Positions 1,582 through 57,616 of a stretch of 64,000 nucleotides of DNA are shown one piece after another. Made by a program: the position numbers and the translations under genes. The stretch's first letter is position 1. The number at the start of each line of letters is the position of its first letter. Source of the DNA: Azolla caroliniana (taxonomy: Eukaryota > Plantae > Polypodiophyta); NCBI GenBank assembly GCA_043228905.1, contig JBHGNT010000003.1, forward strand, positions 14,446,001 through 14,510,000, written 5' to 3'. The notes below the pieces were generated by a model. It was given only the letters and a program-made list of their open reading frames with translations. It had not been told where the DNA came from and searched no databases.

Positions 1582-1591
1582 AGGCCGGATA

Positions 1592-1632
1592 GTGGGATTC
1601 GACGTACAAGGTACTGTCCCACGGGCATGCCA
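1592..1632 (+). other. tRNA-3'-end-like structured motif at the PPT position of element A
   Basis: GTGGGATTCGACGTACAAGGTACTGTCCCACGGGCATGCCA, then TG, then the LTR start TGTTAG; no purine tract nearby. Confidence 0.75.
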
Positions 1633-1634
1633 TG

Positions 1635-27358: not shown

Positions 27359-27724
27359 TATATTTTAATATTTTCTTCTAATTCTATATTTTTATTGAAT
27401 TGGGTATTCTGTACATAATTCTCGTAATGTACGAAGTACACGACGACAATCACCCCCTCCAAACCTACACATCCTCCGGTATGTGCCGAAGTTTCCAGCA
27501 CTTGTTACTCTTCTTCATCTGTAGCACCCTCTGTCTATTCTCCTATGTCGATTATTAACTCTAGCCCACTTTCTTCACTTTCCGCACTTCCGTGATCCTT
27601 GTCCAATTGCTCCTCTGTGTCGGTTTTGTCTAAGATTATGTAGGGTGTGCCGTCACTTTGCTTTTTGAAAATTTCACCCACTTCCCCGCTATAGGCACTC
27701 GAAGTATTGTTCCATCTAGGAAAA

Positions 27725-27776
27725 TGTATGTTGTGTATGCATATATCCATATGTAATGTATGCATGCATGCATGTA

Positions 27777-27831
<55 letters not shown>

Positions 27832-30438: not shown

Positions 30439-31736
30439 CTACCTACATGCATCCAGCTTGTCGGGTGTCAACACTTTGGTCAGCATATCCGTCTCGTTCT
30501 CCTCCGTGTGGATCTTCGTCAACACGAACTCTCGATCTTCCACTCGCTCTCGGATCCAGTGGTACCTCCGTTGGATGTGCTTCGTCCTGGAATGGTAGGC
30601 CGCATTCTTTGCAAGGTGGATGGCACTCTGACTGTCATAGTAGAGCTGGTATTCCTCTTGTTGGATCCCTAGCTCTCCGATGAAGTCCTTCATCCATAAT
30701 ATTTCCTTGCCGGCTTCCACAGCCGCCATGTACTCCGCCTCCGTGGTTGAAAACGCAACCGTCTTATGCAGCCTCGACTGTCACGAAACAGCTCCCCCTG
30801 CATATTTCATAACATATCCCGATGTTGACCAGCTGGTATCCGCATCAGCCGACATATCCGAATTAGTGAAACCGTCAAGTTGGGGTTTACCGGAGCCGAA
30901 TCAGAGACACATACTTGAGGTGCCTTTCAAGTATCAGAGTATCCATTTTATCGCATTCCAGTGCTCCTTGCTGGGATTGCTCATAAACCGGCTCACCACT
31001 CCGATTGCGTATTCGATATCCGGTCGAGTACACACCATTGCATACATTAAGCTCCCGATGGCAGAGGCATATGGTATCTTCATCATATCCGCCTTCTCTG
31101 CCTTCGTCTTTGGGCTTTGCTTACCATATAATCTGCATTTTGTCGGGAGTGTCAATCCGACCGGTTTCGCATCTAACATGTTGAACCGCTGAAGCACCTT
31201 TGTCATGTACTTCTCCTGTGACAACCACAATTGCTTCTTTGACCGGTCCCGGATGATATGCATCCCCAGTATTTGTCTTGTCGAACCCAAGTCTTTCATT
31301 GAGAAGGTCTGGTTCAGAGCCTTCTTCAACGTCCGTATCTTGACTCCACGTACAGGAGGAGTATCAGGAAGTTTCCACCTTCAAACTTCTTCACAAACAC
31401 GCAGTGATTGGCCTGCGTCTTGTGGTATCCTTGATCGGTCATGAAAGAGTCGAACTTCCGGTACCATTGCCGGGGAGCCTGCTTCAAACCGTAGAGGCTC
31501 TTCTTCAACCGGCAAACCAGGTGCTCCTTCCCTTTCTTCACAAATCCCTCTGGTTGCTGCATGTAGATCTCCTCTTCGAGGTCGTCGTGGAGGAACGCCG
31601 TCTTCACGTCTAACTGCTCTACCTCGAGGTCCATGCTTGCCGCTATGCTCAGCACCGTCCGGATGGAAGTCATCTTTACTACCGGGGCAAATATCTCGTC
31701 GAAGTCCACTCCCTTCTTTTGCTGGAACCCCTTCAC
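30439..31736 (-). pseudogene. Copia I RT-RNase H (3' part of pol)
   Basis: QLDVKTAFLH, KSLYGLKQAPRQWY, TRPDI, HSRTKHI; the YVDD motif is deleted near 31345. Confidence 0.9.
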
Positions 31737-32196
31737 TGTTACTCCTAGGGCTGGACAACAGCCTAACACAGGGTGTCCACTTAAGACACTTCACCAAAGG
31801 GTGGTACGGTAGAATGACTTACGACACAACGCTTAATTAAACCTTAATCGATTACTTAAGAATACTTCATTTACACGCGTAAGATATACAATAAGCACAG
31901 AACGGTAATCAACATTGAAAGATTAAGGCAATAAGTTCTATTAATTATCCGCTCTCGATTACATTGTAACCGGGCCTTTATATAGGTCTCCGGTGCGAAA
32001 TACAAAACGGTGTCAACCGGAACCTTTTCGGGATCGGTCCGGATCCGGATTGGCATACCGATTCCGGTCCGTCCGTCCACATCTTCTCATATATTACTAT
32101 ATATTTTAAGACTACTAATTACAACAGTTCCCAAATAAACTATTCCTTTCACACTCTGGTTTGGATCTCCTTAAGCCTTCTTGCCAGCCGGTAACA
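31737..32196 (-). repeat. 3' LTR of B
   Basis: TGTTAC...GTAACA; partner at 57157-57616. Confidence 0.95.
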
Positions 32197-32198
32197 CA

Positions 32199-32238
32199 TG
32201 GCACGCCCGTGGGACAGTACCTTGTACGTCGAACCCAT
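32199..32238 (-). other. tRNA-3'-end-like structured motif at the PPT position of B
   Basis: Minus strand ATGGGTTCGACGTACAAGGTACTGTCCCACGGGCGTGCCA, then TG, then the LTR. Confidence 0.8.
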
Positions 32239-32250
32239 TATCCGGCCCTT

Positions 32251-33835
32251 TTACGCTTCGTCCAAAATGTCCAGAATGCTTTGCTCCAAAATTTCCAATG
32301 GCTCGTCGGGAATCTGTTGTTGCTGTTGTGGCTGTTGTTCCGTTTGTGCCTTCTCCGTTTGGGGCTGCGGCTCCGTTTGTCGCTCTGGCACCGACGTTTC
32401 CTTCGTTAGTTCCTCCGTCCGAGTTGTCTCTGGCTGACTGGCCCCGGCTTGGTCCCCGTCTGGTCCTAGTACCGGCGACGGTTCCTCATCACTAAGGTTG
32501 ACCGTTGCCACCTTTCTCGCTTTTTCTTCCCGAAGCCGGGACCACTCATAGCTCTCAAACTGGATTTGAGCCTCCAGCCGATTGTCGTCCAGTTGAGCTA
32601 TGAGTTGCCGGACCTGTACCAATTGTTCATCCGCAAGGGCTGTGAAATCTTCGGCCAGCTCATCCCTTATATTGGTGAAGTCCTCCAATGTCAGCATATA
32701 TCAGTCGTCACTCTCCTTCCGCCGGTTTTCCACGTCCGCCCTGAGCAATTGGAGTTCCGTCGTATTCTGCGCCCATTTCGTCCACCAACGCACAGAGCGG
32801 TCGTCAATCAAGCTTTTGGTCTTGGTGAGCCATGACCGGAGGATGCACTGGATCCGTTCGGCTCCCATCCGTGATTTGTTTTCTGCGGCTTGTCACTCCT
32901 CTTTCAATTGCTTGATGATACGGACTGTGTCTGCCTCCTGCTCCCTATAATGCGACAATTGATTTTGATAGGTTGTTTGCAACCTCTGTAATACCATTGT
33001 CGCTCTTTCCTTGTCTTCATGGTTCTGTTTGTGGAGCTCCATCCGGTCATTTGTCGCTTCCTCCAATAGCTTGGAACTCTCAGCTCGTTCGTCGGCGAGT
33101 GCCGTTGTGGCCCTATCAACTTCTTGCCGGAGCTCGGCCATCCGTTCCTGCTATTGCTTATACTCCGTCTCCAGCTGCTTGTAGTCCCGATGCAGATGAT
33201 CAAAATCATCGGTCTTCTACTTCAGCCTCTGGTTGATCTCCCAGCGTGCGCGGTCCTCCCGGTCCTTCTGTTGACAGAGTTCCTCCTTCAGCCTCTCGAT
33301 TTCCGTCTCCGCCATCTGTCGCAGCTTGTCTTTTTCCTACAACAATTTCTCTTTTTCCTCCTTTAGCCGGTCGTAAGCATGATGTCCTCTGCCCGGCGGA
33401 GGTTCTCAACAGTCTTTTTTAATTCTTCTTCGGCCGCCTTCTTCAAGTTGCGTTCGCGGCTCCGTAATGCTTCTTGTGCGGCAAGTTCATCTCATAATTC
33501 CGCAAGCTCTTGGGCTTGCGCCGCATCTTTTTCTGGGACACTTTGTGTCTCTGGGATCTTATTCATATGTACATCAACCGGAGTCATTGGTGCTTGGATC
33601 TGCGTTGCGGTTAAGGCCATTTTGGCCATGTCTCCTGTGATCCGATCCAAGTCTTGTTCGAGGCACCGGATCCTTGACCGGGCCATCTCCAATTCATCGG
33701 TTGTGACGAGCAACCGTTCCGTTTGCGCTTTTTCCTCCGCCTCTATGCATCCGACTACTCCGGCAATTTGTTCTCCTATCCACCGGAGCCATTGGCTGTT
33801 GGTGCATTGTTGTTGCGCTTGCACGGCGGGTTGGC
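32251..33835 (-). pseudogene. Extra ORF of B, C-terminal coiled-coil part
   Basis: Homologous to the A ORF; ends EQSILDILDEA*. Confidence 0.85.
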
Positions 33836-34293
33836 TGTTGTCCAGAGGACAGAAATGTAAAATTAGGAAATTAGCAAACGCCAAGTCCGAGTATCACGGG
33901 CCACCGACGGCTCGGTTGTGTATTAAGGGAAAAGTTATTTAAACGAGGACCAGTACCTCAGAGAGAGAGAAGAAAATATAGGCGGAAGCACTAGCTTAGT
34001 CATTCGAGATTAGATAAACTCGTAAGGTCACCGGCCATAGGCCGTGTTCTGTAATCTTTTCTGCCATAGTAATATCTCTTATTTGTGCCTATTTTTGCTG
34101 CATGAGTTTGTGCTTTGATCCATACCTATGAGTTTCACGCCGCCATGTCTATCAAGACCTCGCTAGTGTTTTCTCTCTGAGCCCTATATCTCTCTCGACG
34201 CCTCTGTTACGAGCCTTCACGTACCACGCCCTTGAAGACCAATAGATGCAGATCTATCGAAGGTGTTCACCCAAAGGAACGGGTAACACAATT

Positions 34294-34306
34294 TGGCACG
34301 CCCGGT
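34294..34306 (+). promoter_or_regulatory. PBS of C, tRNA-Arg(UCU)-like
   Basis: TGGCACGCCCGGT, 5 nt after the LTR; complementary to the recalled plant tRNA-Arg(UCU) end ...ACCGGGCGTGCCA. Confidence 0.75.
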
Positions 34307-34479
34307 TACAGCTGTGAGTGCACAGCAAACTTCGTTGAAGGTAACCACCAGCCGCCGTTACGGCGCCCTCTCGCACCACGAGGTCTCGGCCACCCGCCCG
34401 ACGCCCTGAGCCAATTGAAGGAACTTCTGACTCGGCGGTCACTGACCAATCCTTTCCCGATCAATCAGGGGCTTGTCCA

Positions 34480-37400
34480 GTGCAATCCTCGCCACCGGAC
34501 ACTCGATCGCGAGTTGATTCACCACTAGAACCCCCGTCGAGCCCTCCGGAGGTCAATCAACCGGAACTAAACCCTTTTCCGGTGCTACCAGAAGAACCAC
34601 AGTACGACATCATGCCGTACCCATACCCACGATATATCGACGGACCAGACGCGGAGTCACACGTCCGTGCCTTCATATCCATGTGGCAGGCTAACCACTC
34701 CACGCACCGCCTCACGCCAGCCGAAATCGATGCCTCGAAGATTGCCAAGTTCACACTCTCCCCCGATGGACCGGCCGCACGATGGTACTCTCGCCTCGAA
34801 ATAGGAGAGGCCACCACTTTCCAAATCGCGCGCACAAAGTTCCTTGAACTTTTTCATTGCGAGGTGCCTAAACGGGAACTGCTCCGGCAATTCTTCTCTA
34901 TATGCCAAGAACCGCACGAAACGGTCGTGCAGTTCACGATCCGGTTCCAGGATCTCTACAGACAAGTGGCCGATGATGTCTCGGCACAACATATATTGGA
35001 CACTTTCCTATCTAGTTTAAGAGAGCCTCTACGAACGACTCTCGCACTTACAAATTTCGCCAACCATACTATCGAACAAGTCATAGTGCGCGTTCTCGCC
35101 CTCGATCGGAACCAGCACGACACGGCTTTCTCGATGACATCCTTGCAAAACGCTCTTCCCCAAGAGGACAATCGCTTTCGCCAAGCCCTCCAATGCACTG
35201 CGTGTTCAGGATCAAGGCACCTGGCCCTCGAATGTCCACACCGACCACAGTGTCCGATCTGTCAGTCTCGAGCTCACACGGTCGAGCAGTGCGAATATAA
35301 TATGTTGAACCGCACAACGGCGGCACCGGTCCGCCAGATCGAGCCACGAAATACATACTCTCGGTAGGATGAGCGATATATCTACTGAGACCAGGATAAC
35401 GACCAACCACGATCCCCGGATAATCGTCGCCGAAACGACGACTACCAACGTGATAATCGTCGTGAGTATTATCGCGATGAACGACACGACGATTATGCTC
35501 GATACGATGACGATCGCGATGATCGGTATGACCGAAGGAACTCACGCATGGATCGGCGAAACGGCAACCGCAACACACGCAACAATAGAAGACCTAATCA
35601 CAACCGCCGACGGGACGCTCCTCAACATGACCAGCGCGACTCCAAAGCACCTCGGAACAACCCACCACCAAATGAGACCGAGAATCAACAACAACAGCTT
35701 CCACACACAGACCGAGCAGACACCAGCAGCTCGGCCAACGTGACATGTTTTAAATGTAATCAACCAGGCCACTACGCCACACAATGTCCGACAACCAACT
35801 GTGGCAAGGCACCCGCGGTAAACAGTATCATGGCCGATGTTCAAACGGTCACTACCCGGAGTAAAGCGCAGACTACTCAGTGGCAAATCCAGGATGACGT
35901 ACGACAGGCAGCAAAAGAATGGGTCGAGACGGCCAATAAAAATAATGCCACACGCATGCAAACTGACATGAGGGACGGGCCCAGTGAAGTACCACAAACC
36001 CCGGCACCATCCACATCGTCGGAGGACGACCAACTATGGGATGTTCTTACCAACTCCAGCATCTCGTTGCCCCTACATAAACTGCTACCACTCATGCCGA
36101 GATTTCGGGACACCCTGGCTGCACTCCAGGCCAATACTAAGGCCGTGACACCACTGGTACACCTCACCGAAGTAGGAACCGGTCCACCACTCATGGATTC
36201 TCAGAACCCAGCCGTGCGAATCATCATTAAGGGCCAAGACCTGCACGGATGCATCATCGACGACGGATCCAACGTAAACGTTATTAGTGAGTCAACGTGT
36301 CTCAACCTAGGCTTGAATCAATGGGAACCATGCCCCTTTTGGCTTCGGATGGCCGACACCCGCTCTGTTCGCTCCATTGGTTTAATATGCCATCTCGACT
36401 TCACACTCGGAGGCCACATGTTCACGATCTCAGCTGTCGTGCTACGACTGGAGACACAAGGCGCCTATCCAATGTTACTATGTCGACCATGGTTGCGTAC
36501 AACGAATATCAAGCAACATTGGCAACACAACATGATCTCGTTCCGAAGAGGAAAGACAAAAGTCTGAATCATCACGGAAGAACGAGTCCCTGTCGCCCTC
36601 AACACTTCGCCGTTATACGCGGAAGGGGTCCATATGCTCGACGGGTTGGTCGATGAGGAGGTCGATGACTTCCTAGATGATCATCCCACGATCATCCCTC
36701 TCTTCAAAATCAATGCCTTACCAACCATTGAGCCATCTCAAGACGAGGAAGTCACGGAGGAGTCACCACCTCAGAATGAACCCGATGCAACCATAGTTGC
36801 CGAGCTACGTCATGCTCGGGAGGCTTTCGAACGCAAACTCGCCATTTCACAACGAGTGAAAGCATCAACCCTGGAAACAATAAACCTCGGTTCGGACGAG
36901 AATCCCCGTACGGTACAAATTGCCAATAATCTACCAACCGGCGAACGGGCATGCCTCGTAAAATTACTCGCCGACTACCAGGATGTTTTCGCTTGGTCTT
37001 ACACCGATATGAAGGGGTTGGATCCTCAATACTACCAACATCAAATTCACATCTTACCCGACACTCGGCCAGTTCAGCAGAGGCGCTACAGGATGAACCC
37101 CAACTACGCCGCTAAAGTCAAAGAGGAAATTGACAAACTACTCCGAGTGGGCTTCATTCGCCCTGTTAAATGGGCTACATGGTTGAGCCCGATCGTAGTG
37201 GTCCCAAAGAAGAACGGAAAAATCCGCATCTGCGTCGACTATCGGAAGCTTAATGCGGCAACAGTCACCGACGGTTTCCCTCTCCCATTCACGGATAGCG
37301 TCCTCGACACGGTAGCCGGCCACGAATGCTACAGTTTCCTCGACGGGTTCAACGGCTATAACCAGATAAGAATGCACCCGGAGGATCAGGAGAAAACCGC

Positions 37401-38976
37401 TTTCTTCACGGAATGGGGTGTTTTTGTAGCAGAAGTTATGATGTTCGGTCTAAAAACGGCGCCGGCTACGTTCCAGCACATCATCACCGAAATCTTTCAT
37501 GACTACATCCCGGCATTCATGCAAATCTTTCTCAACGATTTCGCCGTGTATGGCCATCGACGGGAACACATGACCCAGTTACGACTCTGCCTGGACCGAT
37601 GTCGCCAAGCTCGATTGAGTTTAAACCCGACGAAATGCGCGTTCTTAGTCACCAGCGGCAACCTTCTCGGCCACATTGTCAGTCAAGAAGGCATCGCTAT
37701 GGACCCAGATAAAGTAAAGGCAATCCTGAATGCCACTGCACCCTCGAACGCTAAGGCACTAAGCCGTTTTTTGGGACAGATCCGGTGGCACAGCCGAATG
37801 ATACGACACCTGGCCGATTTCGCGACACCCTTACACGCGGCAGTCCATCGCCTTCCTTTCCAATGGACGTCAGTCGAGGACACGGCCTATCAGACCCTGA
37901 AACGAATGTTGTCACATGCCCCGGTGGTCCAGTCTCCGGTTTGGTTCGAACCGTTTCATGTCTTCGTAGATGCTTCGGACATCGCCATCGGAAGTGCCCT
38001 GATGCAATGCACACCCCCGAATTGGTATAGGCCTGTGTACTACACCAGCTGACGGCTCTCGACCGTGGAAAAGAATTACTCCACCACCGAGCGGGAGGCC
38101 CTCGGTATGATTTATAACATCAATAAATTTCGGCATTACCTCTTGGGCCGAAAATTCACCTTTCACGTGGATCACTCGGCCCTTCTGTATTTGGTCAATA
38201 AACAAGCCCTCACCGGATGGTTGGCTCGGTGGATGCTCCTACTACAAGAGTTTGATTTTCAGATTTAGCATTGACCCGGGGTACAACATGCTGTCGCTGA
38301 CTACTTGAGCCGTCTTGAGTCAGGAGAACCGGCGAAAACAACGTACGACGAGCTACCGGACGCCAGCCTATTTAATCTGACCACGGTACCAGACGATAAC
38401 GGAGATGAATGGATCACGGAGATGACCCATTTTCTCACTACCGGTGTACCTCCCGAGCACATGACCCTTGACACGAGAAAACGCCTAGCAGTGCGTAGCC
38501 GGAATTTTTGCCTCGTCTTGGACATTCTCTACCACAAAGGCTCGGACGGCATATGGCGCCAAGCGATTCGGCAATTCGAGAAGAACACCGTTCTTCAGGA
38601 AGCCCACCAGGGAGTAGCCGGGGGACACTATACCGGGGATGCCACGGCAAGGAAAGTTTGGCAAAGTGGATTATGGTGGCCGACAATAAAGAAAGACGCT
38701 CACGAGTTTTGCCGGCAGTGCGATTTGTGCCAACGTCAGGGGCAACCAATGGCACAGTCACGGATGCCACACCAGCCGATTCTTCCGTTGGACCCATTTC
38801 AAAAATGGGGTTTGGATTTTGTAGGCCCTTTCAAACCACCCGCGGCCCGAACAGGGAATAGGTATATTATCGTTGCCACGGATTACTGCACCAAATGGGT
38901 CGAGGCTAAGGCACTCCGAAATAAAACGGCGGCATCCACGGCTAAATTTGTGTACGAGCACCTCTGGTGCCGTTAC
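34480..38976 (+). pseudogene. C gag-PR-RT-RNase H-integrase (N-terminal part)
   Basis: CCHC knuckles, CIIDDGSNVN (protease), WLSPIVVVPKKNGKIRICVDYRKLN, VDASDIAIG, HHCC zinc domain, WGLDFVGP. Confidence 0.92.
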
Positions 38977-39404
38977 TGTCAGGAACAATACTGAGATAGA
39001 GAAGGAATTAGTACTAAACGAAGGATTAGTACTATGAGAGGTGTAGAACTTCTTCGAGAGAAGGAAGGAGTGAGCGAGACGGAGAGAAAGAGAGAGATCT
39101 CGAGAGAGAGAGAGTGATGATAAGAAAGATATGTATTATATGAAGAGAATATACAATGGTGGCTAAAAGGCTTAAGACTGGCGTTGAACCAATTTGGTTC
39201 AACATAATGCCTAGTGCCCTCTTTTATAGTGTTTTCAGGAGTAATCCTGAAGCTTCTAGAATGTTCCAGAGAAATCTGGAATATACACTAATTTCCTATA
39301 ATAAAATGTAAATGAAAATAATATTCTACGTATTACAATAGATGGTCTAATGGTCAAGAGCTCGACCCATGTAACCTAAGGTCATGGGTTCGAGTCTTGC
39401 CATA

Positions 39405-42400
39405 TCATGACACTATCCCCCCTTTAAAACGACGAGTGTCACGAGTCGTCTTGGATTGAGGACCCGGTTTGTGTGGATATTGTCGATGGAAGTCTTCAAG
39501 AAGAGCACGAGCATTGGTCACATTCTCGATCAGTTCCCAAGTACGTTCGCTGGGACTATAGCCTAGCCAATCGACTAGATAGTAGAGCTTGTTGCAAACA
39601 ATCTTGGAATCAAGGATGGCGGCAACCTCGTACTCTGGCCCATCTTCAAGCTCGATCGGGGGTGGAGGTTGGATAAGACGTCCTGGGATGGTGCTCTCGT
39701 GGTAGGGTTCAAGGAGAGAACTATGAAACACCGGATGTATCCGAAGTTGACGAGGTAGATCAAGATGAAAAGCGACATCATTAATCTGTCCAATAATACG
39801 GAAAGGACATAATCGCCGATAATCCAACTTCTCACATGGGCGAGTAGTCTTGATGTGTCGTCGTAGCAGCCACACCCGATCTCCAATATTAAAACAGGAT
39901 GGAAGTCGATGACGATCCGCGTAGACCTTGTGTGTTTGTTGAGCTTGCTGGAGATGAGTAGATAAATCCACTTGTATCTTGCGTAACCGCTCCAAACGAT
40001 CCTTCGCGCACGGATTTGTGGACACCTCTGGGGTTTCAAGTACACTCCACCGGGGGTGACATCCCGTATAAGCATAAAATGGCGTAACTTTAGTGGATGC
40101 ATGGATAGAGTTGTTATAGGCAAATTCGGCGAAGTGGAGAATATCTGCCCAGTCGTCCTGATGATAATTGAGAAAGCACCGCAGATACTGCTCCAACGTT
40201 TGATTTGTTCGTTCAGCTTGGCCGTCGGTTTGTGGGTGGTAGCCGGAGGAGAGGTTACAAGAGACCTTGAGCATGTTAAAAAGGTGCTTCCAGAATTTTG
40301 ACACGAACTAGGGTCCACAGTCGCTGATGATACTATCGGGAAGTCCATGATGCCGACATACTTCACGCATGACAATTTCGGTAGTGTCTTCACTGGAGAT
40401 CTCCTTAGTACATGGCAAGAAATGAGCCATCTTTGTGTATCGATCGACCACCGTTAGAATCGCATTGAACCCCTTAGAGACTGGAAGATCTGTGATGAAG
40501 TCTAGAGCAATGGATTGCCACGGCTTGCTTGGAATTGGTAATGGTTCTAATAAACCATATGGATGATGCCTTGGCATTTTCGCTCTACAACATGTATCAC
40601 AAGTCCGAACAAAATCCTCAACAAATTGTCGCATACAGGGCCACCAGAATGATCGTTGTACTAAATGTAATGTTTTAGTACTACCAAAATGCCCAGTTGT
40701 ATATGTGTCATGGCAGTTTTGAACTACTCGAAGGCGGCAAGAACCATTAGGAACATACAAAAGTTCTTTAAAGAAGAGTAATCCATCATGGTATTTGAAT
40801 TGGCGATAGTCCGTACCTGGTGGTTGCAACTGTGAACACGACGCTCGAGAGGGATCAATTTGTGCTAGTATAGCTTGGGCGAACGCATCTGTCTTCAAGT
40901 CTTCACGTATGGTATCAATAACGCGGGAATCCATGGGCATGTCAAAGATCTATATTGCTTGTAGTCGTGTCGGTCCCAAGATGACTTGTTTTTGGTTATC
41001 GAAAGCTGGCTCACCGGGACGGGGTGCTAGATACGAACGTCGTGATAATGCATCTGCTTTCCCTTGGTGCTTCCCCAGACAATATGTAATTTTGAAGTCG
41101 AAACGCGTGAGGAAGTGGGCCCACCGAGCTTGACGTCGATTCAACACACGAGCATCCTGAAAGTAGGCAAGATTCTTGTGATCACTAAATACAGTGACTG
41201 GATGAGAGGATCCCTCCAGAAAATGCCTCCATTGCATAAAAGAATCCACTATTGCCAATAGCTCCTTATCATGAATTTCGTAGTTAATTTCGGCGGCATC
41301 AAACTTCCGTGAGTGAAAAGCCACAGGATGTAGCTTCTCATCATTCCCTTGTTGTGACAGAATGCTCCCCAATGCAAAATCTGATGCATCAGCTTCAATA
41401 ATGAATGTTTTTTCCGGATCGACATGAGCTAGAATTGGAGCCGATGTAAATGCCTTTTTAAGACTCTCGAAAGCCATGTCCGTTTCTTCAGACCAGATGC
41501 ATGGTTGTCCCTTCCTGGTAAGTTGTGTGAGAGGTAGAACGATCTTGGAGTAATCTTGTACGAACTTCCGGTAAAAATTGGCAAAGCCTAGGAAGCATTG
41601 CACATCCCACACCGAACGCGGAGTCTGCCATTCTACCACCGTTTTGACCTTAGCTGGGTCCATGGAGATGCCTTCTGACGAAATGATGTAGCCGAGAAAT
41701 TCCACTTGGTTGCACCCGAAACTACATTTTTCTAGCTTTGCATACAGACCATGTTCTCGAAGTCGTTTTAGTACTAATAGTACATGAGAATCATGTTCTT
41801 CTTGGGTCTTTGAATAAACCAGTAGATCATCCAAATAGATGATCAAACAATCATCCAATAGATCTCGGAATATATCATTAGCCATGTGCTAGAAGACTGT
41901 CGGCGCATTAGTGAGGCCGAATGGCATGACCGTATACTCGAAGTGCCCATATCTGGTGCGAAACACGGTCTTCCATTTGTCTCCTGGTCGGATTCGTACG
42001 AGGTTATATGCTCCCCGTAAGTCGATCTTCGTGAAGAACCTGGCACCATTGATCCGTTCTAAAAGACTTGAGATAAGGGGAAGAGCATACCTATTCCTGA
42101 TTGTAACCTTATTCAAGCCACGGTAATCTACAACGAGACGAAGCGATCCATCTTTTTTCTTGACGAAGAAAATGGGCGCGCCGGCTGGAGATTTCGAATG
42201 TCGAATGAAACCATTTTCCAAATTCTCCTCGATATAGGCCCGAAGGACTTCCAGCTCGGTTGGTGACAAATTGTAGATCGGTCCCCATGGCGGCTCTTTT
42301 CCCAGTTGTAAATCGATGGGGCAATCGTACGGTCGATGATGAGGAAGTGTGTTGGCTTGTACTTTATCGAACACATCGGCGTAATGACGATACTTCTCGG

Positions 42401-42962
42401 GAAGTTGAACGGTGGATTCTTCTTTAGTGGTGCTGGAGGGGTTTACTGATATTGCAAAGAGGAACATTTCCTCCTCACACCCTTCTTTACGCAACTGACG
42501 TAGCGAAATGGTTGCCATCTTCTAAGTTGTTCCTTGGGTTTGTTGACATCGGATTTCTCTTGTTCTCCAATCTATGTCTGGGTTATGTAACTCGAACCAT
42601 GGTAATCCTAAAACTATAGGATGTTCTGGGATACTAATAATATTAAATGATACTACACATGCTAAGTTATCTAGGACAATATTAATGGGCTCTGACTCTT
42701 CTATGATATTTCTGAAAGCAATGGGACGTCCATCAATGACTACTACAGAGGCTGGACACTGGAGTTTTCTTAGGGATATCTTATGAGCTTGAGCAAATTT
42801 CTTATCCATAAAGCAAGAGTTAGCTCCGGAATCTAGGAGTGCTAGGACATGTACTGGAGGGGTACTTTTAGTACTAACTATTACTTGGGCTACGAACACA
42901 TCACTAACTTGCTTAGAGGGAATGGAACCACTAATGGGCTGCACAGATCTAGGGCTATCCAA
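39405..42962 (-). pseudogene. E pol: PR-RT-RNase H-integrase-chromodomain, a few in-frame stops
   Basis: [64 protein letters not shown], chromodomain EYEVAAILDS...YLVDWLGY...TWE. Confidence 0.93.
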
Positions 42963-43149
42963 CCAAACGGCTCCTATTTTGGCTGGACTTACTCGTTTAA
43001 CTCTTCTTCTAACTGACTAAGGACATCAAATTTGTTTGCTAGATCTGGGCTATTAGTACTATTAGGATTATTAGATATCCCTACTGAAATAGGCTCGGGT
43101 TTAGTACAATTAGAACTAGCGACTATTTGGTTTACCTGTCTTCTTGGCC

Positions 43150-44140
43150 TATGGGGGCAATTTATTGCGATATGTCCTGGTCCACCGCAGTAAAGACATA
43201 GTCGATTTGTACGGTGTCACTGCTTTTCTTCTTCGGATAATGGCCCTCGACGACGTGTAGTGTCAATCTCCATCGGAGTCGGAGTATTCGCTGGAGGCGC
43301 ATTATATGACTCCCTCGGAAAAGGTCTTGCTACCACTGAGGCGTAGGTGGGCTCTGATCTTGGCCTTGGCATCTGTAGCTGTCTTTCCGAACGTCGCTCA
43401 AAGAGGCGGTTGTCACATCTCACCGCGCGACTGATTGCTTCTGCTAAGGACTTTGGCTCTTCAGGGAAGGTCAAGAGTAAATCCTTGACGTTGTTGCGTA
43501 AACCATAACGGAATTGCTCCATCAACGCTTGATCATCCCAAGGGATATCGGCGGCGAGTAGGCGAAAATCTGCAGCGTATGCGGAGGCTGGACGGTCACC
43601 TTGGCGTAATCGCCGAATTTTGTTGATTGCGGTCCTGATGCTGTCAGTATCTCCGAAACATGCTTTAAACTCACCTAGAAACTCTTCAAAATTGTTGAGT
43701 AACGGAGATTCCTTTTCTAATAGTGGAGCGAACCATGACAACGCTGAGCCACTTAACAAAGTGCCTACTAAACCCACTCGTGATGCATCGGTGGGATATC
43801 GGGAAGGATGCATTTGGATAACTAATCGTACCTGGTTAAGGAACCCTCTAAACTGCGATCGCGTTCCATCGAACTTCGTGGGAAGGCCAATCTTGGGTTC
43901 TTTATGAATCCCTTGTGTTCCGGGCCCTTGTTGTTGCATCGCTACGATGGTTGCTTCGAGTTGTTGCACGTGTAACGCAAGTTCCCCATGTTGTTGTTGC
44001 GTTTGCTGCTTTTCTAAGGAGATTTGCTGAAGATCCCCCAGCAACCATTGGTTTTCTTGTTCCAAAGCATGGAACTTCTCTTTCAAGCATTGAAATTCCG
44101 AGAAAACATATTGATATTCTTCAGCGCTAACAGTGGCCAT
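43150..44140 (-). pseudogene. E gag
   Basis: PTKFDGTRSQFRGFL, LRQGDRPASAYAADF, PMEID; CLYCGGPGHIAINC knuckle follows a premature stop at 43217. Confidence 0.9.
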
Positions 44141-44649
44141 GGGATGAAAGAAAAGAGGAATAAGAGATTAGTAGGAAATGAGAGAGATAAAAGGTAGGAA
44201 AATTGGTTCAAACTGTCAGGAACAGTACTGAGACAGAGAAGGAATTAGTACTAAACGAAGGATTAGTACTATGAGAGGTGTAGAACTTCTTCGAGAGAAG
44301 GAAGGAGTGAGCGAGAGAGAGAGAAAGAGAGAGATCGAGAGAGAGAGAGAGTGATGATAAGAAAGATATGTATTATATGAAGAGAATATACAATGGTGGC
44401 TAAAAGGCTTAAGACTGGCGTTGAACCAATTTGGTTCAACATAATACCTAGTGCCCTCTTTTATAGTGTTTTCAGGAGTAATCCTGAAGCTTCTAGAATG
44501 TTCCAGAGAAATCTGGAATATACACTAATTTCCTATAATAAAATGTAAATGAAAATAATATCCTATGTATTACAATAGATGATCTAATGGTCAAGAGCTC
44601 GACCCATATAACCTAAGGTCATGGGTTCGAGTCTTGCCATATCATGACA

Positions 44650-45526
44650 GTTACGGATGTCCAATTGAGCTCGTTAGTGACCAAGTTGGGCACTTCATCA
44701 ATCACATAATACGTGAACTTACACACCACTACGCGGTGGTGCACAAGAAAAGCACACCATACTACCCGCAGGCGAACAACTTGGCAGAATCGACCAATAA
44801 AATCCTCCAAACCATACTGAAGAAGATCGTCAATGAAAACAGGACCGATTGGGATGACACCATACTACCCGCAGGCGAACGGCTTGGTAAAATCGACCAA
44901 TAAAATCCTCCAAACCATACTGAAGAAGTTCGTCAATGAAAACAAGACCGATTGGGATGACAAACTCCAGAGCGCGTTGTGGGCGTATCGTACGACTTTC
45001 AAAACAAGCATCCAATCGACCCCCTTTTGAATGGCGTTCGGGTTAGAAGCCGTAATGCCCGTCGAGTTCCAAGTCCCGAGCCTCCGAGTTAAAGTCAAAG
45101 CACGGCTCCCCGAGGCCGAATCCGAGCAATACTGGCTGGAACAACTCCTCGAACTCGGGGAAGATAGGATAGAGAAGTATGGCCCAGCTCGAACAACGCC
45201 AACGCAAGGCTTTCGTGGATCAACATCGACATGGGCTGGAGAAGGAGCTAACCATCGGCAAACCAGTTCTTCTTTTCCAAACACGACTCGGGTTAATGCC
45301 AGGAAAATTAAGATTTCGGTGGACCGGTCCATTCTGGATTATCGACGAGTTCAACGGGACGTTCCAGCTCAGCACACTCGCTAGCGACACGGTCAAAAGC
45401 TGGGCCAATGGTTTTCGACTTCGACCATATCGAGGGACTACACCACCCAACCCGTTTACCGAGCCACACAGCACAAACATGACTCGGGAGATCACCACGG
45501 AGGACGCCACGTGTCCCCCTGAATAA
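44650..45526 (+). pseudogene. C integrase C-terminal part, with a 103-bp tandem duplication (44754-44959)
   Basis: YGCPIELVSDQ, STPYYPQANG, ALWAYRT, KLRFRWTGPF (GPY/F motif). Confidence 0.9.
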
Positions 45527-46057
45527 GGACTCACCCACCTTCTTGAAATTAATAAAAGTAGTAGTAGGTAGGATTAACCATAGTTTAGCCACTGATTAGC
45601 TACACCTACACCACCCACCTAGGAACCCACAATTTTAGGAGCACCCCTCGCCACCACTCAGTTAGTACCTATTTAAGCTATTCACACATGCAAAGCACAT
45701 GCAAAGCACTAGAAGCACCCCACTCACCTTCAGGACACGTGGTGCTAGTCACTTATTATGGCACCCACGACTTAGAATCTTCAGGATTCGCTTCAGGCAC
45801 AAAACCCTAGGAGTAAGTTACTAAAACCGTTTCCAAAACGCAACAGAGACCATTATCGCTCCCCATCTCCATCGCTCTCAAGATCAGAAACCCCGTCTCG
45901 CCCTCATCACGCTAAGCACTCTTGCTCTCAAGCCCTCTTTCTCTCTCATAACCCCTCTGCTGGACTTCCCCTTCCTGTTGTTCCTCCTGTGGCTCGCCCT
46001 CGCCTCATCACTTTGCTTCACACTTCCACACAGTCGAATCCCGTCTCCATCTCCACC

Positions 46058-49000
46058 ATGCCTCTTACCACCTCAACAGAAACCCACGCCTGGCTCCAGG
46101 AACAAGGAATGGGCAGTTACCTGAAGATCATCGATGCCCCCGTGCACCCAAATGCCCAAACTGTGGCTAAACGTATAAGTCCCGAAGCCATCACCAACAA
46201 CGTCCTTCGGGCTGTTTTGGATATGCAACGGGGAGGGGACCATGAGGTTGACATACCCCCGGCATCAAAGATGAAGGCGTACTTCGGTGAGTACTTAGCC
46301 TTAGGGAAGGCATATCGCACATATGGCAGTCCCAACAAAGCTTTCGGGGAGATTGCTCGTATATTAATGGAGTATGCGTTCGTGCATACGAACCCAACGA
46401 GCATGCCGCAGAACAAGGCAGCCATCATCATCAGCGCGTATGAAGGGAACAGAATCGATTGGGGAATCATCATAGGCGAGGGACTCCGCGCCACCTTAAC
46501 TTCATTTCAGTCTGGTAAGAAGATGTTGTCTGTTCTTACACACTTTTTGATGGTTCTATACCCACCCTCTTCGCTTCCTTCCCCTCGCACACTCACGTCC
46601 CCACCACCACCACGAAGGCAGAGAGAGAAATTCGTGGCCATCAGCCACGAAGCATGGGAGGAGCCCAAATCGCCTTCACCCCCTGCCGCCGACCAAAAAA
46701 CAGCATCTGCACCACCACCCGCCCAACCCCAACAAAAAAGGGTAGTTTCCGAGACCTGCCAAGAATGGGAGGAGGTAGCCGCGGAAGACACCACGGCCGA
46801 TGACGTCGCCATTCGACAGCCAACGTCGCGCCCCTCGGTAATGTCCCCAGGACCTAGCCCACGCCCCAACACACAGCAAGCTGCACCACCACGACCCCAG
46901 AAAAGGAAGCAGGCGGAGGAAACGACACTACCGGCCCTGGAACCCCAAACACAGCCAAGCAAGAGAAGACGACTCAACTGCGAGTCCTCGGAAGAACAGA
47001 AGGAGCCACAACAGGAGCAAGCCTTAGTGGTCAGACAGAGCAACCTGGCCATCACCCCTGCGGAGACATCGCTGAACTAGGGAATGATCGAGCATGGGCA
47101 GACAACACAGATCTCGGAGGATGAAGTCCTCGGGTATAAGGACCTCCCTGCAGAGGCTTACGAATTTAGTGCGCTCCTACGCCTCGGTACGTCATTCGAG
47201 CTGGTCGACTTCCTCGCTAGAGCCCAAGTTGCGGCAGCCGCTCGAATGGCGGAAGAGCACGCCGAAACATAAATGATTCAACACGCGCTAATAGGTGAAA
47301 TTGAGCCCCAGGAGGACAGGGCTTTACAAACAATCGAGAGGAAGAAGTAGGCAAAACAGGCCGCTCTCCTCATGGAGGTCCCCGAGTTGAACACGGCCCT
47401 TATCGAGGCATATCGGGACCTGGATCGCACTACGCGGGCAGCCAAAGACATGGCCCGAAAGATAAAAATAGCCCAAAAACAGGCTAAGATGGCTACAGAA
47501 CTATGGCACGCTGTGAACCAGAAGCTGGCAGCCTGGGAGCAAAACCGGCCGGAACAACAACTCCCGAGCCTTCTGGTAACGACCACCGAGGCCCTCCCAG
47601 CGCCTCCACGCATAACAATGATGGATGAAAGCACCATCACCGACTCAATCCTGAAGGTGCAAGCCAATACACAAACGGAGTCGTTACAAATGGTCGATGC
47701 CTGCACAACAACCGAGGCGCCCATGCCCATGGAGAAGACCGAGATACCCCCACCTCGTGCACCCAAGGAGGTGGCAACCTAGACAGAACCCCCGCTCCGG
47801 GATTACCGTGCGGAACTTAAAGAAGAACAACGGCGAACCGAGAGACACGAACAACGGCATCAAGAGGCGATGGCTCGACTAAAAGAAGAAGCTTCCAAGC
47901 AAATGGCCGAGATAAGAGCCCAGGCCGACCAAAGGATACACGAGTAGAACGAAGCACTGGGCCAGGTACAAGCGCAAGCCGCGGGCAAGGAAGCCGAACT
48001 CAAAAGCAAGCTAGAGGAATACGCAGCCATAGTGGTGAAGATAGAGAAGGAGGTTCTAGACCTACAGGCCGCGCTCAACAATGCGAAAGACTGGAACCAA
48101 CGGCAGGAGGAACGAAATCGCCAACGGGAGGAGAGGATGAACGCGGAGAATGCCGAGCTGCAGAGTCAGCGTACGACCCTTAAAGAGATGGCTGACGAGT
48201 TTTTCATCAAATGCAAGCTACTTTCGGAGCAAAAAGATGCATTATCGGATTCCTACTTCGCCCTACAAGAGGAGAGAATCGTCGAACGGGAACAAATCCG
48301 GGCCACGTGTCAGAAAGAACGGGAGCAGGCCACCGAAGAACTCACCAAGCGTTACGAGCAGGCTCTCCAGCTCGTAACCGCGGATGCAAAGAACACTCAG
48401 GCCATCTATGAGCTAAAAACACAGAAGATTCAGGCTGAGGTCGATGGCTTAAAACAGGAATTAGCAACCATCCGAGCACAGCCCGGCATGGATGAGACAC
48501 GCATCAGAATACTGATCGAGAAATAGTGCCAGCACCTTACCAAAAAGGTCGAGAAAACATTAAGTTGCGCAGGAGACAAATGGGTAGCCCAAGCTGCCAA
48601 ATTGCATATTTTACGCGCGGATGCCGAGAATCAACGGAAGGAGGGCCGCGGCTTCTACAAAATGGACGAAGCCAGCATACAAAACCTGCATGCAGATTTA
48701 ACCGAGGATTACCAGTCCTTGGCAAAATCTCACACCGCGGCAATCGAGCAAATAATGGAGGATTTCAATGATAGTCAGATGTTGTTTCACCTGGAAGCAG
48801 AAGCCTTCGAACGAGAACGACTCGCAGCCATCCCCACCAGCCCTCCAACGGCCACAGAGCAGAAAGAAGAACCTCCCAGCAAGGAGATCACGGACACGAC
48901 ACAGGAGGAACTTGCCCCGGCCAACAGACATTCCATGGATGCCCACACGGTACCAGAGCCTGTCGAAGGAGAGGTCTGCGCCCACGAACCCACACCCCCA

Positions 49001-49144
49001 CTAGAAGAATCGGCCGCACCTGAGGCGGACGTCCGAGAAGATATGCCACCCCCGGGCCAAACTCAACCCCCTGCACCGACAGTCCAACCAGACCACCCTT
49101 CCACCACCCCGGACCCCGAAAGCATCCTCAACATCTTAAAGTAG
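46058..49144 (+). pseudogene. Extra ORF of C (~1030 codons, one frame, premature stops only)
   Basis: ORF pieces starting 45989, 47084, 47372, 48032 and 48602 share one frame; N-terminal domain aligns with B 50292-50888; coiled coil; ends ESILNILK*. Confidence 0.85.
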
Positions 49145-49206
49145 GAATGAAACGAGGATCACGCCTTAAAGGCAATTTTTGTAATATTGTTAGTATTTTG
49201 TAAGTC

Positions 49207-49246
49207 GTGGGTCCGACGGACAAGGTCCTGTCCCACGGGCGTGCCA
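49207..49246 (+). other. tRNA-3'-end-like structured motif at the PPT position of C
   Basis: GTGGGTCCGACGGACAAGGTCCTGTCCCACGGGCGTGCCA, then GG, then the LTR start TGTTG. Confidence 0.8.
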
Positions 49247-49703
49247 GGTGTTGTCCAGAGGACAGAAATGTAAAATTAGGAAATTAGCAAACGCCGAGTT
49301 CGAGTATCACGGGCCACCGACGGCTCGGCTGTGTATTAGGGGAAAAGTTATTTAAACGAGGACCAGTACCTCAGAGAGAGAGAGAAGAAAATATAGGCGG
49401 AAGCACTAGCTTAGTCATTCGAGATTAGATAAACTCGTAAGGTCACCGGCCATAGGCCATGTTCTGTAATCTTTTCTGCCATAGTAATATATCTTATTTG
49501 TGCCTATTTTTGCTGCATGAGTCTGTGCTTTGATCCATACCTATGAGTTTCACGCCGCCACGTCTATCAAGACCTCGCTAGTATTTTCTCTCTGAGCCCT
49601 GTATCTCTCTCAACGCCTCTGTTACGAGCCTTTATGTACCACGCCCTTGAAGACCGATAGACGCAGATCTATCGAAGGTGTTCACCCAAAGGAACGGGTA
49701 ACA

Positions 49704-50888: not shown

Positions 50889-51475
50889 CTTTGCGTCGAG
50901 GTTGGAGAGCGTTGGCGAGGTTTGGTGGTGGGGAGAGTGTGAGAGAGAAAGTTCTAAGGGAGGGAGTTCTCTATGTGCGAGCTCTCTGCGATTGATCTTC
51001 GCGCGTCTGTCTGCGTCTGTTCTCCTTGGTTCGAGATAGGAGAAGGTCTCGATGCGTGGGTCTTTTTCTCTCTGCATCTTGGCGCCTTTTCTGAGCCTCC
51101 GCATGTGCAGGTCGTGTACTATAATAGCATTGCGTTCCATGTGGCGGTGGTTTAATGTCCTATTCATAGCCCCTCGTACCTTTTTGACGTGCCTCTTTAC
51201 TCCTCGTTTGCATGGCCGTTTCCACCACTCCTTTTCATGATTTATTTGATTCCATTCAATTTTTACTTACTTTTTTTTTTTTCATAAAATTAATTGTGTG
51301 GTTAATTTTTCTCCGGTCCTATCGGACCCTTACCCGAAACGCGCACCTTGCCAGCCTCTTGACGGTTTGCCGTCGTTATGCTTTCCCCGGTTGCTGGCTC
51401 GTGCTCCCCCTTACCGGCTTGGTGGTAGCCATTTTCCTCACGGGTTGCCGTTGTGGTTGGCCTGCCGATGTCTAA

Positions 51476-54400
51476 TTCGGTGGTAGCCCTTCGTTCAAAT
51501 GGGTTCTTGGGCATAGGTCCTTTGTATGGTTTTAGTCTAAATCCGTTGACCCATTTACCCAGCACCTCGCCGGCAAGTGTCCCTAACTGGTAAGACCCAT
51601 TAAACCCGCGTGTGATCCAGTACGGTCCGGTCCATCTAAACCGTAGTTTGCCTAGCATTTTACCCATCCGGGTCTAGAACACTAGTACCGGCTTGCCGAC
51701 TTCGAACATCTTTTCGTTTCCTTTCCGGTGCCGATCTACAAACGCTTTCCGTCGCCGTTGTTCCAATTCCAGGTGCATAATGCTCGCCAGTCGGTGTTTT
51801 TCCAGTTCACATAGAGCCTTTAACCGAATTGCCTCTGATTCCTTTTCATTGAGTCGTTCCCGAATCTGAATCCGTAAGCTCGGTACCTGGAATTCGACCG
51901 GCATGACTGCCTCTAATCCGAATGCTAACCGGAACGGTGTTGTTTGGATGCTTGTTTTGTATGCTGTCCTGTAAGCCCAGAGCGCACTGTGCAGCTTCGT
52001 GTCCCAATCTGTCCGATTTTCATTGACGATCTTGCGCAGGATATTCTGTAGCGTTTTGTTTGTTGACTCTGCTAATCCGTTGGCTTGTGGGTAGTATGGG
52101 GTGCTCCGTTTATGTACTACCGCATAGAATATGTCAAGCTCTCCACCACCTGTCCAAGAAAGTGCCCTCCTTGGTCACTTATCAGCTTTATGGGGCATCC
52201 GTACCGGCACCAAGTGCATTCATATAAGAATTTTACCATCGACGCCGCGGTGTTATCTGAGGCTTTGGCTTCCACCCATTTAGTGCAGTAGTCCGTCGCG
52301 ACGATCACATACCGGTTGCCAGTTCTCATTGCCGGTGGTTTAAATGGTCCGACAAAATCCAGTCCCCATTTCTGAAATGGTTCTAGCGGTAGTACTGACT
52401 GGTGCGTCATACTAGCTTGTTCCGTTGGTTGGCCCATTCGCTGGCATAGATCACACTCTTTCGTGTACTTGACTGCGTCTTTCAATGTAGTCGGCCACGA
52501 TAGGCCACTTTGCCATATCTTCCTTGCCGTCGCATCTCCAGCATAATAGCCTCCGGCGACTCCGCAGTGTGTTTCCCGTAGTACTACCTCCTTCTCGTCG
52601 TTGCGCACCGCTCGTCGCCATATCCCGTCTGCGCCTTTGTGGTAAAGTGTGTCCCGGAGTAAACAGAAGTGTCGGCTTTGTACCACTAGGCGTTTTCTTT
52701 CATCCCGGTTCATCTCCTCTGGAGGTAATCCGGTGCTCAGAAATTGGTGCATATTCGTTAGCCACTTGTCTTCTAGTGCCACCGTTTCATCTGTTGTCGT
52801 TTCCATACTGACTCGAAATAGCTCAGCATCCGGAAACTCGTCTGGTACTCCATCACCCGTTTCGCCGGAATCTAACCGACTTAGATAATCTGCTACCGCA
52901 TGCTGTATGCCGGGTCGGTGGAATATCTCGAGTTTGAACTCCTGCAACAGAAAAGTCCACCGGGCCAACTTACCGGTAAGCGACGCTTTGTATACTAGGT
53001 AGAGGAGTGCCGAATGATCTACATGGAAGGAAAACTTTCTCCCCAATAAATAGTGCCTGAATTTTGTTACACTGTAGATCATACCTAAAGCTTCCCTTTC
53101 TGTGGTGGAGTTATTTCGTTCAGCTTGGGATAACTTCCGGCTTGCGTAATATACAGGCCGGTACCATCTTGGCTTCGTAAGTTGCATCAGCGCACTCCCG
53201 ATTGCAATGTCGGACGCATCCACGAACACATGAAATTCCTTCGCCCAATCCGGGTGTTGCACTACCGGCGCTTGCGACAATAGAACTTTGAGTGCTCGGT
53301 ACGCCTTATCTTCGGTGTCGGTCCACTGGAACGGTGTTCGGTGTACCGCAGCATGCAGTGGTGTAGCTAGGTCCGCCAAATACCGGAGCATTTGGCTATG
53401 CCAACGGATTTTTCCTAAGAAACGGCTCAATGCCTTTGCCGTTGTTGGTGTCGGTGCCTCCAGGATTGCTTTTACTTTGTCCGGATCTACGACAATGCCT
53501 TCCTTGCTCACAATATGCCCTAGTAGTGTTCCGCTGGACACTCCAAATACACACTTCGCCGGATTCAAGCTTAGCCGGTACGCCCTACACTTCTCTAGAC
53601 ATAGTCTGAGGTGCTGCAAATGATCTTCTTCTCGGCTATAGACGGCGAAGTCGTCAAGAAACACCTGCATAAAAGCCAGTATGTATTCGCCAAAGATCTC
53701 CATGATAATCTGTTGGAATGTTGTCGGTGCCGTTTTCAGTCCGAACATCATCACCACAGCAACAAACACTCCCCATTCGGTGGCGAAAGCCGTTTTCTCT
53801 TGATCATCAGGGTGCATCTGGATCTGATTATACCCGCTGAATGTGTCTAAGAAACTGTAGACTTCATGGCTAGCGACGGCATCCAAAACTCCATCCGTAA
53901 ACGGAAGTGGAAATGCATCCATTACCGTTGCCGCATTGAGCTTCCGGTAGTCGACACAAACTCTAATTTTGCCGTTCTTCTTCGGTATGACTACAATCGG
54001 GCTCAGCCATGTAGATTTCTTTACGGGACGGATGAAGCCAACCCTCAGAAATTTGTCGATTTCCTCCTTGACTTTGGTGGCGTAGTTTGGGTTCATTCGG
54101 TACCCGACGTTGTGCTACCGGCTTGGCGTCTTTGCTCAGATGTATCTGGTGCTGATACAACTGAGGATCCAGCCCTCTCATATCCTCGTAAGACCAGGCA
54201 AATACGTCGCAAAACTCGTTGAGGAGTGTAATTATCGCCGTTTTGTTCTCTGCATTCATTTCTTTGGCGATGTGCACCGGTTTTGCCTCCTCCGCCGTTC
54301 CTAGATTTACCTCTTCTAATTGAGACGCTTTTATGCGCTGTGATATGGCCATTTCTCTTTCCAACGCCTCCTGCGCTTGCCGTAACTTCCGGATTGCTTC

Positions 54401-56999: not shown

Positions 57000-57156
57000 T
57001 CGGATTTCTTCCGCTGCTTGCCGGAAAGCCTCTCACCGCCTTCTCCGTTAAGCAAGTCTTCGTGCTCTCTTCGTAACCGGGTCGTCTGTTAGCCTAGTCA
57101 TCCATTCCCGTCGTTGTTCACTGCGATTATACAGGAATCGTGGTCACCAAAAACTG

Positions 57157-57616
57157 TGTTACTCCTAGGGCCGGACAACAGCCTAACACAGGGTGTCCAC
57201 TTAAGACACTTCACCAAAGGGTGGTACGGCAGAATGACTTACGGCACAACGCTTAATTAGACCTTAATCGATTACTTAATAATACATCATTAACACGCGT
57301 AAGATATACAATAAGCACAGAACGGTAATCAACATTGAAAGATTAAGGCAATAAGTTCTATTAATTATCCGCTCTCGATTACATTGTAACCGGGCCTCTA
57401 TATAGGTCTCCGGTGCAAAATACAAAACGGTGCCAACCGGAACCTTTTCGGGATCGGTCCGGATCCAGATTGGCATACCGATTCCGGTCCGTCCGTCCAC
57501 ATCTTCTCATATATTACTATATATTTTAAGACTACTAATTACAATAGTTCCCAAATAAACTATTCCTTTCACACTCTGGTTTGGATCTCCTTAAGCCTTC
57601 TTGCCAACCAGTAACA
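57157..57616 (-). repeat. 5' LTR of B
   Basis: Partner of 31737-32196. Confidence 0.95.

Follow-up and report, generated by a model that had tools for sequence, protein, structure and literature searches.

Retroviruses and LTR retrotransposons are generally taken to prime their second strand from a polypurine tract (PPT) (PMC5371799, PMC6317226; these and the other sources below are cited from extracts, and statements about them cover those extracts). Yeast Ty3 has LTRs, a tRNA PBS after the 5' LTR, the order RT, RNase H, integrase, and a primer signal directly before U3, as have the elements described here; its plus strand is primed by a 12-nt purine tract, whereas the same place is occupied here by a hairpin-split motif in the sense of a tRNA (PMC5371799, in extract). 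Ty1, Ty3 and Drosophila Gypsy also carry a second, tRNA-related site near the 3' end which engages the T arm, and the PBS of Ty1 is split by an internal loop, a likeness to the split motif (PMC5371799, PMC1635307). According to the extracts of the same papers, the second sites of Ty3 and Gypsy have their complementarity to the tRNA in the genomic RNA, serve the minus-strand primer and do not prime the plus strand. In contrast, the motif described here shows such complementarity in the minus-strand DNA alone, takes in the CCA, and its tRNA may differ from that of the PBS. The genomic strand of the main element, as set by pol, carries the tRNA's own sense, which is not the arrangement of a bipartite PBS.

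An element-encoded sequence that could act as a primer is also known from Tf1/sushi, Tcn1 and TAR, where the 5' end of the RNA supplies a self-primer that anneals to the PBS to start the minus strand, the PPT being kept (PMC6317226, PMC10085805, as extracted). Complementarity between motif and own PBS exists here for one type of element only (C-type, see below), not for the main one. Small-RNA-derived sequences are found in the LTR elements Helenus and Cassandra, two TRIMs in which the sequence lies inside the LTR with its Pol III A and B boxes kept and with PBS and PPT present (PMC10886601, in extract). Compared with Helenus/TRIMp3, the motif here lies outside the LTR, its B box is split and the PPT is gone. 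The full-text literature that was searched, with most subscription papers outside its reach, describes no case in which a tRNA copy stands in for the PPT.

The window analysed, a repeat-rich stretch of 64,000 nt from Azolla caroliniana, contains a nest of elements which self-comparison and TSDs resolve in the order copia element, B, C and the chromodomain element D, from the outside inwards. The relevant features are the following.

31732..31736: left TSD of B, TTCAC (right copy at 57617-57621)
31737..32196, minus strand: 3' LTR of B, 460 bp, TG...CA, 97% identity with the 5' LTR, K2P 0.031
32197..32198, minus strand: spacer TG of B, 2 nt from the CCA end to the LTR
32199..32215, minus strand: box 1 of B, tRNA-Arg(UCU) nt 59-76 in sense, minus one C (C65/C66), with the CCA end
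32216..32228, minus strand: insert of B, 13 nt, 4-bp hairpin with a 3-nt loop, between tRNA positions 58 and 59
32229..32238, minus strand: box 2 of B, tRNA nt 49-58 in sense, 9/10 match
32251..32700, minus strand: 3' end of the extra sense-strand ORF of B, no Pfam match
51674..54730, minus strand: pol region of B, in the order RT, RNase H, integrase, interrupted by stops and frameshifts
55668..57032, minus strand: gag region of B, without a Pfam match of its own, resembling the Retrotrans_gag region of C
57140..57149, minus strand: 5' PBS of B, TGGTGACCAC (relatives: TGGCGACCAC), 7 nt from the LTR
57157..57616, minus strand: 5' LTR of B
33836..49703, plus strand: element C, inside B, TSD TTGGC, LTRs at 33836-34288 and 49249-49703
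34294..34306, plus strand: 5' PBS of C, 13 nt complementary to tRNA-Arg(UCU), 5 nt from the LTR
49207..49246, plus strand: 3' motif of C, box 1 as in B, hairpin stem altered on both sides, 2 nt before the 3' LTR
1592..1632, plus strand: 3' motif of A, a relative of B, 2 nt before the LTR at 1635-2096
38977..44649, minus strand: element D, inside C, a chromodomain gypsy element with an ordinary PPT, used as internal control

Element B thus extends over 31737-57616 on the minus strand, with a 5-bp TSD and no PPT, and lies in the copia RT gene, the frames of which are found on both of its sides. Element A is the 3' end of a B relative (window 1-2096), and the LTRs of C differ by a K2P of 0.034. 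The Pfam domains of B follow the Ty3/gypsy order RT, RNase H, integrase at 52117-54114(-), which fixes its orientation; the same order is found in C, and the RT-RNase H parts of the two are 77% identical over 321 residues. The 460-bp TG...CA LTRs, the TSD TTCAC and a PBS starting with TGG, conserved in relatives, are those of a Ty3/gypsy element, while the polypurine tract expected before the 3' LTR is missing. No Pfam match to a chromodomain or an additional RNase H was obtained in the 18 scanned ORFs of A, B and C. A quick tree joins B and C with unnamed proteins in a single supported group, which it places among RTs of ferns and liverworts. B is a non-chromovirus Ty3/gypsy element.

Among such elements, Athila/OTA looks similar in its 5-bp TSD, its length of about 10 kb, its extra ORFs after pol and the lack of a chromodomain or extra RNase H, as in the ORFs scanned here (PMC6317226; 10.64898/2026.03.20.713144, both in extract). 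An AT-rich spacer of 3-6 bp separates LTR and PBS in Brassicaceae Athila, compared with 5-7 here, but the PPT junction is conserved in 97% of the copies there and no PPT is found here (same sources, as extracted). The Athila PBS mostly matches tRNA-Asp/Asn, also Ala in the REXdb criteria, whereas the PBS here is of the Arg(UCU) type or another (PMC6317226, in extract). In the ORFs scanned, the elements share the chromodomain/RNase H status of Athila, without its PBS and PPT features. Tat/Ogre/Retand elements differ by their additional archaeal-type RNase H, absent from the scanned ORFs of B, C and A, and Phygy/Selgy elements by a 4-bp TSD, a Trp/Ala PBS and no extra ORFs, compared with 5-bp TSDs and extra ORFs here. 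The latter are sense ORFs located 3' of the integrase (45776-49144 in C; 49700-51266 and 32251-33835 in B, where the ORF is broken in two by the insertion of C). They are related to each other, without Pfam match and in part coiled-coil-like. Element D sits in the integrase gene of C; its 5' LTR is not followed by a TGG-type PBS, in keeping with self-priming elements of the Tcn1 kind.

The first-pass annotation had read the 3' junction of B as ATGGGTTCGA-CGTACAAGGTACT-GTCCCACGGGCGTGCCA-TG, followed by the LTR start TGTTAC, and these letters are indeed found from 32238 to 32197 on the minus strand. Its reading of a PBS-like site on the plus strand is equally correct, the LTR end at 32196 being followed by CA and by TGGCACGCCCGTGGGAC at 32199-32215. 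This 17-mer, searched with up to three mismatches, has three sites in the window (1616, 32199 and 49230), each 2 nt from an LTR; 0.06 sites would be expected by chance and none of 100 shuffles reached three, so that these sites are not fortuitous. The 2-nt spacing holds for all three window elements (A, B and C). Three further motifs, found without any spacing filter, are likewise separated from TGT by 2 nt, and the same C is missing in each; the spacer letters vary among families (TG, GG, AG, TA, CG).

Nothing like a PPT accompanies the motif. Within the last 60 nt, purine runs reach at most 5 nt in A, 7 in B and 4 in C, none adjoining the LTR, whereas the control elements D and copia both show a 10-nt purine run at the PPT place. 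Among the matches listed from the metagenome scan described below, 49 of 55 distinct 30-nt windows have no purine run longer than 4. There is no room for a PPT in B, since the stop of the extra ORF lies 12 nt before box 2. The borders of the motif are marked by many loose contig ends at 32237 and 32190-32193, and the contigs covering it come from runs labelled as four organisms. Between B and other families, 19-20 of the last 20 internal bases are identical, compared with mostly 8-15 in the flanking bins, an identity which is partly imposed by the search for the contigs and not for A and C.

Relatives were collected by a metagenome scan for the 17-mer followed by NNTG, a pattern which imposes box 1 and the spacing and leaves box 2 and the hairpin free. 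At least 124 matches in at least 121 loci were obtained; two unrelated GC-rich matches were dropped, and the other 122 listed all come from one series of assemblies, the contigs of which may be chimeric across the LTR. The 101 comparable LTR starts (matches listed plus window copies) form 40 clusters at 80% identity. Among the matches listed, the hairpin stem is 82% Watson-Crick over 74 variants, compared with 60% after shuffling (0 of 5000 shuffles), and four stem types, separated by double changes, can be recognized. In 16 sequences chosen for diversity, all four hairpin pairs have changed on both sides, and none of the outer T-stem. The insert hairpin covaries, with compensatory sequence changes across families. 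The motif is thus real, conserved, structured and, as detailed below, independent of the 5' PBS. Viral contigs gave no match to the motif and no relatives of the RT, and in prokaryote genomes searched with a looser pattern none of 121 loci ran on to the CCA end. One metagenome contig (L031:991-1585) has two 3' motifs in facing orientation on either side of an imperfect palindrome (557 bp) of two U3 halves, which may be either an inversion product or an assembly artefact.

The tRNA itself could be identified from a single contig of coverage 2 (L002), which holds at positions 1190-1265 a complete, 76-nt, CCA-ended tRNA-Arg(UCU), antisense to a C-type element and joined directly to the internal 3' part of that element. 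It looks like a read-through copy of the whole minus-strand primer past A58, followed by a template switch, and the junction suggests that the RT of this lineage meets and copies tRNA-Arg(UCU). Position A58 of tRNA is methylated and acts as an RT stop. Compared with the L002 tRNA, the 40-nt motif of B consists of nt 49-58, the 13-nt insert and nt 59-76 minus one C of C65/C66; the insert, placed after A58, is located at the border of the classical 18-nt PBS. When the complement of the motif is cofolded with the tRNA 3' end, B and C both give 17 bp, the 4-bp hairpin and at least 10 further bp, with energies of -54.2 for B, -57.7 for C and -49.0 kcal/mol for A (RNA:RNA parameters). The PBS of C matches tRNA-Arg(UCU) over 13 nt; that of B does not (-18.2, scattered pairs). 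Among the matches listed, pairing of box 2 with the tRNA together with the hairpin is predicted for 77 of 90 distinct variants, against 21 of 94 controls. Several families among them show box 2 drift at positions 56-58, and at least 17 copies a one-base insertion in box 2; such changes weaken the pairing with the tRNA and keep or extend an intramolecular stem. ARAGORN found no tRNA gene in the window, and Rfam nothing at gathering score, with one chance match near the motif. A role as Pol III B box was discarded, the box being split by the insert and altered by T55>C in the C-type.

B and C differ in their 5' PBS. The candidate put forward earlier for B, TGGTGACCAC, is confirmed; it runs from 57149 to 57140 on the minus strand and is separated from the 5' LTR by 7 nt. 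It differs from TGGCGACCAC by one C>T, at a CpG. Both belong to TGG(C/T)GACCAC, the putative complement of plant tRNA-Arg(UCG). A search of viral contigs for a tRNA matching TGGCGACCAC yielded 21 matches of phage type and no plant tRNA-Arg(UCG). In human ERVs, the assignment of the same 10-mer is disputed between Arg and Trp (PMC4724089, in extract). The spacers between LTR and PBS (57150-57156, 7 nt, in B; 34289-34293, 5 nt, in C) start with CA and end in T runs, and a 2-nt spacer is found in short families.

Among the matches listed, 18 contigs join motif, LTR and PBS, ten with the TGGCACGCCC type of PBS and eight with TGGCGACCAC. The idea that the PBS of B is a decayed TGGCACGCCC fails, all five PBS-bearing contigs of B's LTR cluster, among the matches listed, carrying TGGCGACCAC, so that the T of B is a single change. 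Nor do the 5' and 3' sites always covary, the same 3' motif being found with both PBS types in a comparison where every contig was selected for the Arg(UCU) motif and where families with both sites changed fall outside. The motif pairs with its own PBS at -29.9 kcal/mol in C, but at only -9.2 in B and -12.9 with the PBS of a B-like contig. The sense strand of B offers no site with fewer than two mismatches to the last 10 nt of the motif, and three sites with two mismatches in 10 kb. This weak pairing, the lack of a better partner site in B and the constancy of the motif across PBS types bear out, for B, the earlier claim that pairing with the own PBS is not what maintains the motif.

The TGGCGACCAC PBS occurs in two contexts, in B-like elements and in short elements with a PBS flank matching TGGCACGCCC-type relatives. 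This suggests at least two PBS changes under a constant 3' motif, the second of which rests on two contigs (L013 and L056) that may be chimeric across a shared U3. These two and a third contig (L029) have an identical U3 and the same PBS 3' flank, with different U5 and PBS (TGGCGACCAC at 5 nt versus TGGCACGCCC at 2 nt). As proof of a PBS switch within one family, the case of L013 and L056 is weakened, because the identical U3 could let the assembler join two subfamilies. That B is a one-off recombinant was set aside in view of its matching LTRs, its TSD and the B-like contigs similar on both sides of the LTR.

An independent plus-strand role of the motif, as proposed in the first-pass annotation, is our best inference from these comparisons. 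We lean slightly towards the reading that tRNA-Arg(UCU) anneals to the minus-strand DNA and primes the plus strand, with another tRNA priming the minus strand in B-type elements. The chances look evenly balanced for the broader proposal that the lineage primes both strands with host tRNAs and that each cycle of a B-type element requires two distinct tRNAs, the first at the 5' PBS on the RNA and the second, tRNA-Arg(UCU), at a hairpin-split site on the minus-strand DNA which replaces the PPT. The starting point would be the place of the PPT, holding a copy of tRNA nt 49-76, one base short, with a hairpin after A58 and its CCA 2 nt from the LTR. After removal of the RNA by RNase H, the minus-strand DNA, now single-stranded, is predicted to fold the 4-bp hairpin and to take up the tRNA 3' end. 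The three-way junction so formed would comprise 11 bp, a bulged base of the tRNA, 6 bp, the hairpin and 10 bp. RT would then extend the 3'-OH of the CCA. The left end of an LTR is set by the plus-strand start (PMC5371799, in extract); the 2-nt spacer would be an overhang trimmed by integrase, and the motif would thereby fix that end. More speculatively, bulge and hairpin could split the RNA:DNA hybrid into pieces of at most 11 bp, which might shield the tRNA from RNase H. The shift of the 5' PBS to another tRNA might also remove the competition of the element's sense motif with the primer, which exists in the C-type. Two points speak against tRNA priming: RNase H acts on a tRNA annealed to DNA, and an RT is fitted to its own PPT (PMC5371799, as extracted).

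The motif is colinear with the tRNA, and a tRNA binding the antisense DNA and a sense RNA imitating a tRNA are the same by sequence. The next reading, which is possible but rather doubtful, is that the motif copy in the element's own RNA is the plus-strand primer. A T-arm-like stem with the inner hairpin would survive RNase H, be cut after the CCA and be extended like a PPT, the tRNA likeness serving recognition by RT or by a host tRNA-processing enzyme. Position and spacing are as for a PPT, the positional predictions being identical to those of a host tRNA, and independence from the PBS is explained as well, since a second tRNA is not required. In the sense RNA, GTGGG and CCCAC can form a stem, as in the fold of A at -14.3 kcal/mol, and GGGA variants gain one pair in this stem. 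However, a weak RNA fold would have to beat a 40-bp RNA:DNA hybrid, B offers no acceptor-stem partner, and the outer stem is without compensatory change (7 of 80 cells unpaired, its 3' side being fixed by the search). Position 55 is also C in the whole C-type group, which makes a poor T-loop mimic and a wobble for tRNA annealing (one event). The GGGA variants slightly favour the intramolecular stem and T55>C slightly the tRNA annealing. Neither a wobble-asymmetry comparison, in which every transition at G or T counts as wobble and C56/G57 is a CpG hot spot, nor hairpin energies discriminated between sense RNA and antisense DNA.

It is less probable still that the motif acts in cis at another step (packaging, dimerisation, strand transfer, Gag/RT loading or a tRNA-fragment silencing decoy), the plus strand being primed otherwise. 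Such a signal would fit the retention of the motif by non-coding derivatives and the 3' tRNA-related sites of Ty3 and Drosophila Gypsy, which bridge and do not prime (PMC5371799, PMC1635307, in extract), but these are complementary to the tRNA on the RNA, whereas the motif has the tRNA's own sense, and the missing PPT and the CCA 2 nt from the LTR would be left unexplained. Maintenance by own-PBS pairing (for circularisation or minus-strand self-priming) or persistence as a neutral relic of a captured tRNA is very improbable, since the possible C-type pairing and the whole-tRNA capture of L002 are outweighed by the weak pairing in B and the B-like contig, which already contradicts the pairing version for B-type families, by the non-matching PBS in 8 of the 18 contigs among the matches listed, by the identity peak at the motif and by the compensatory hairpin changes.

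B and its relatives are a new form of Ty3/gypsy element, likely with a new priming route. If so, a diverse and successful lineage using a structured tRNA copy for a PPT would break the PPT rule, and would open to experiment both the demands of an RT on its plus-strand primer and the means by which such a primer evades RNase H. The uncoupling of the two sites removes the simplest mundane explanation, own-PBS pairing, and predicts two primer tRNAs in B-type particles. Annotation based on PBS and PPT may flip or miss these elements, the better PBS match being at the wrong end, and the errors may be likeliest for short non-coding elements. The earlier suggestion that inward-facing PBS-like sites could mislead the orientation calls of LTR annotation tools is plausible.

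Non-coding derivatives were recognized in seven contigs among the matches listed, with internal regions of 1.7-2.3 kb, no ORF longer than 150 codons and both PBS and motif kept; tblastn with the proteins of B and C found no match in the same seven contigs. For three of these, the motif of 42-44 nt is all that is shared with a coding contig (L071). Non-autonomous elements retain PBS and PPT likewise (PMC10886601, in extract). Five contigs (L007, L012, L040, L048 and L067) hold non-coding LTR elements of 2-2.7 kb, some in tandem in the assembly, with only short terminal signals in common with the coding families. Another contig (L033:1062-1137, 2756-2828) shows a solo-like LTR with motif, with a tRNA-Lys(UUU) gene and a degenerate copy of tRNA-Lys(CUU) nearby.

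Around the nest, the window contains a long (TATG/TGTG) microsatellite-like tract beside the copia LTR (27700-29750) and host exons of a receptor-like cytoplasmic kinase (21639-22826), nearest to fern proteins. Its exon at 22521-22826 is 91-93% identical to the best Adiantum matches, 86-87% to the best Ceratopteris matches and 82-85% to Marchantia and Selaginella proteins.
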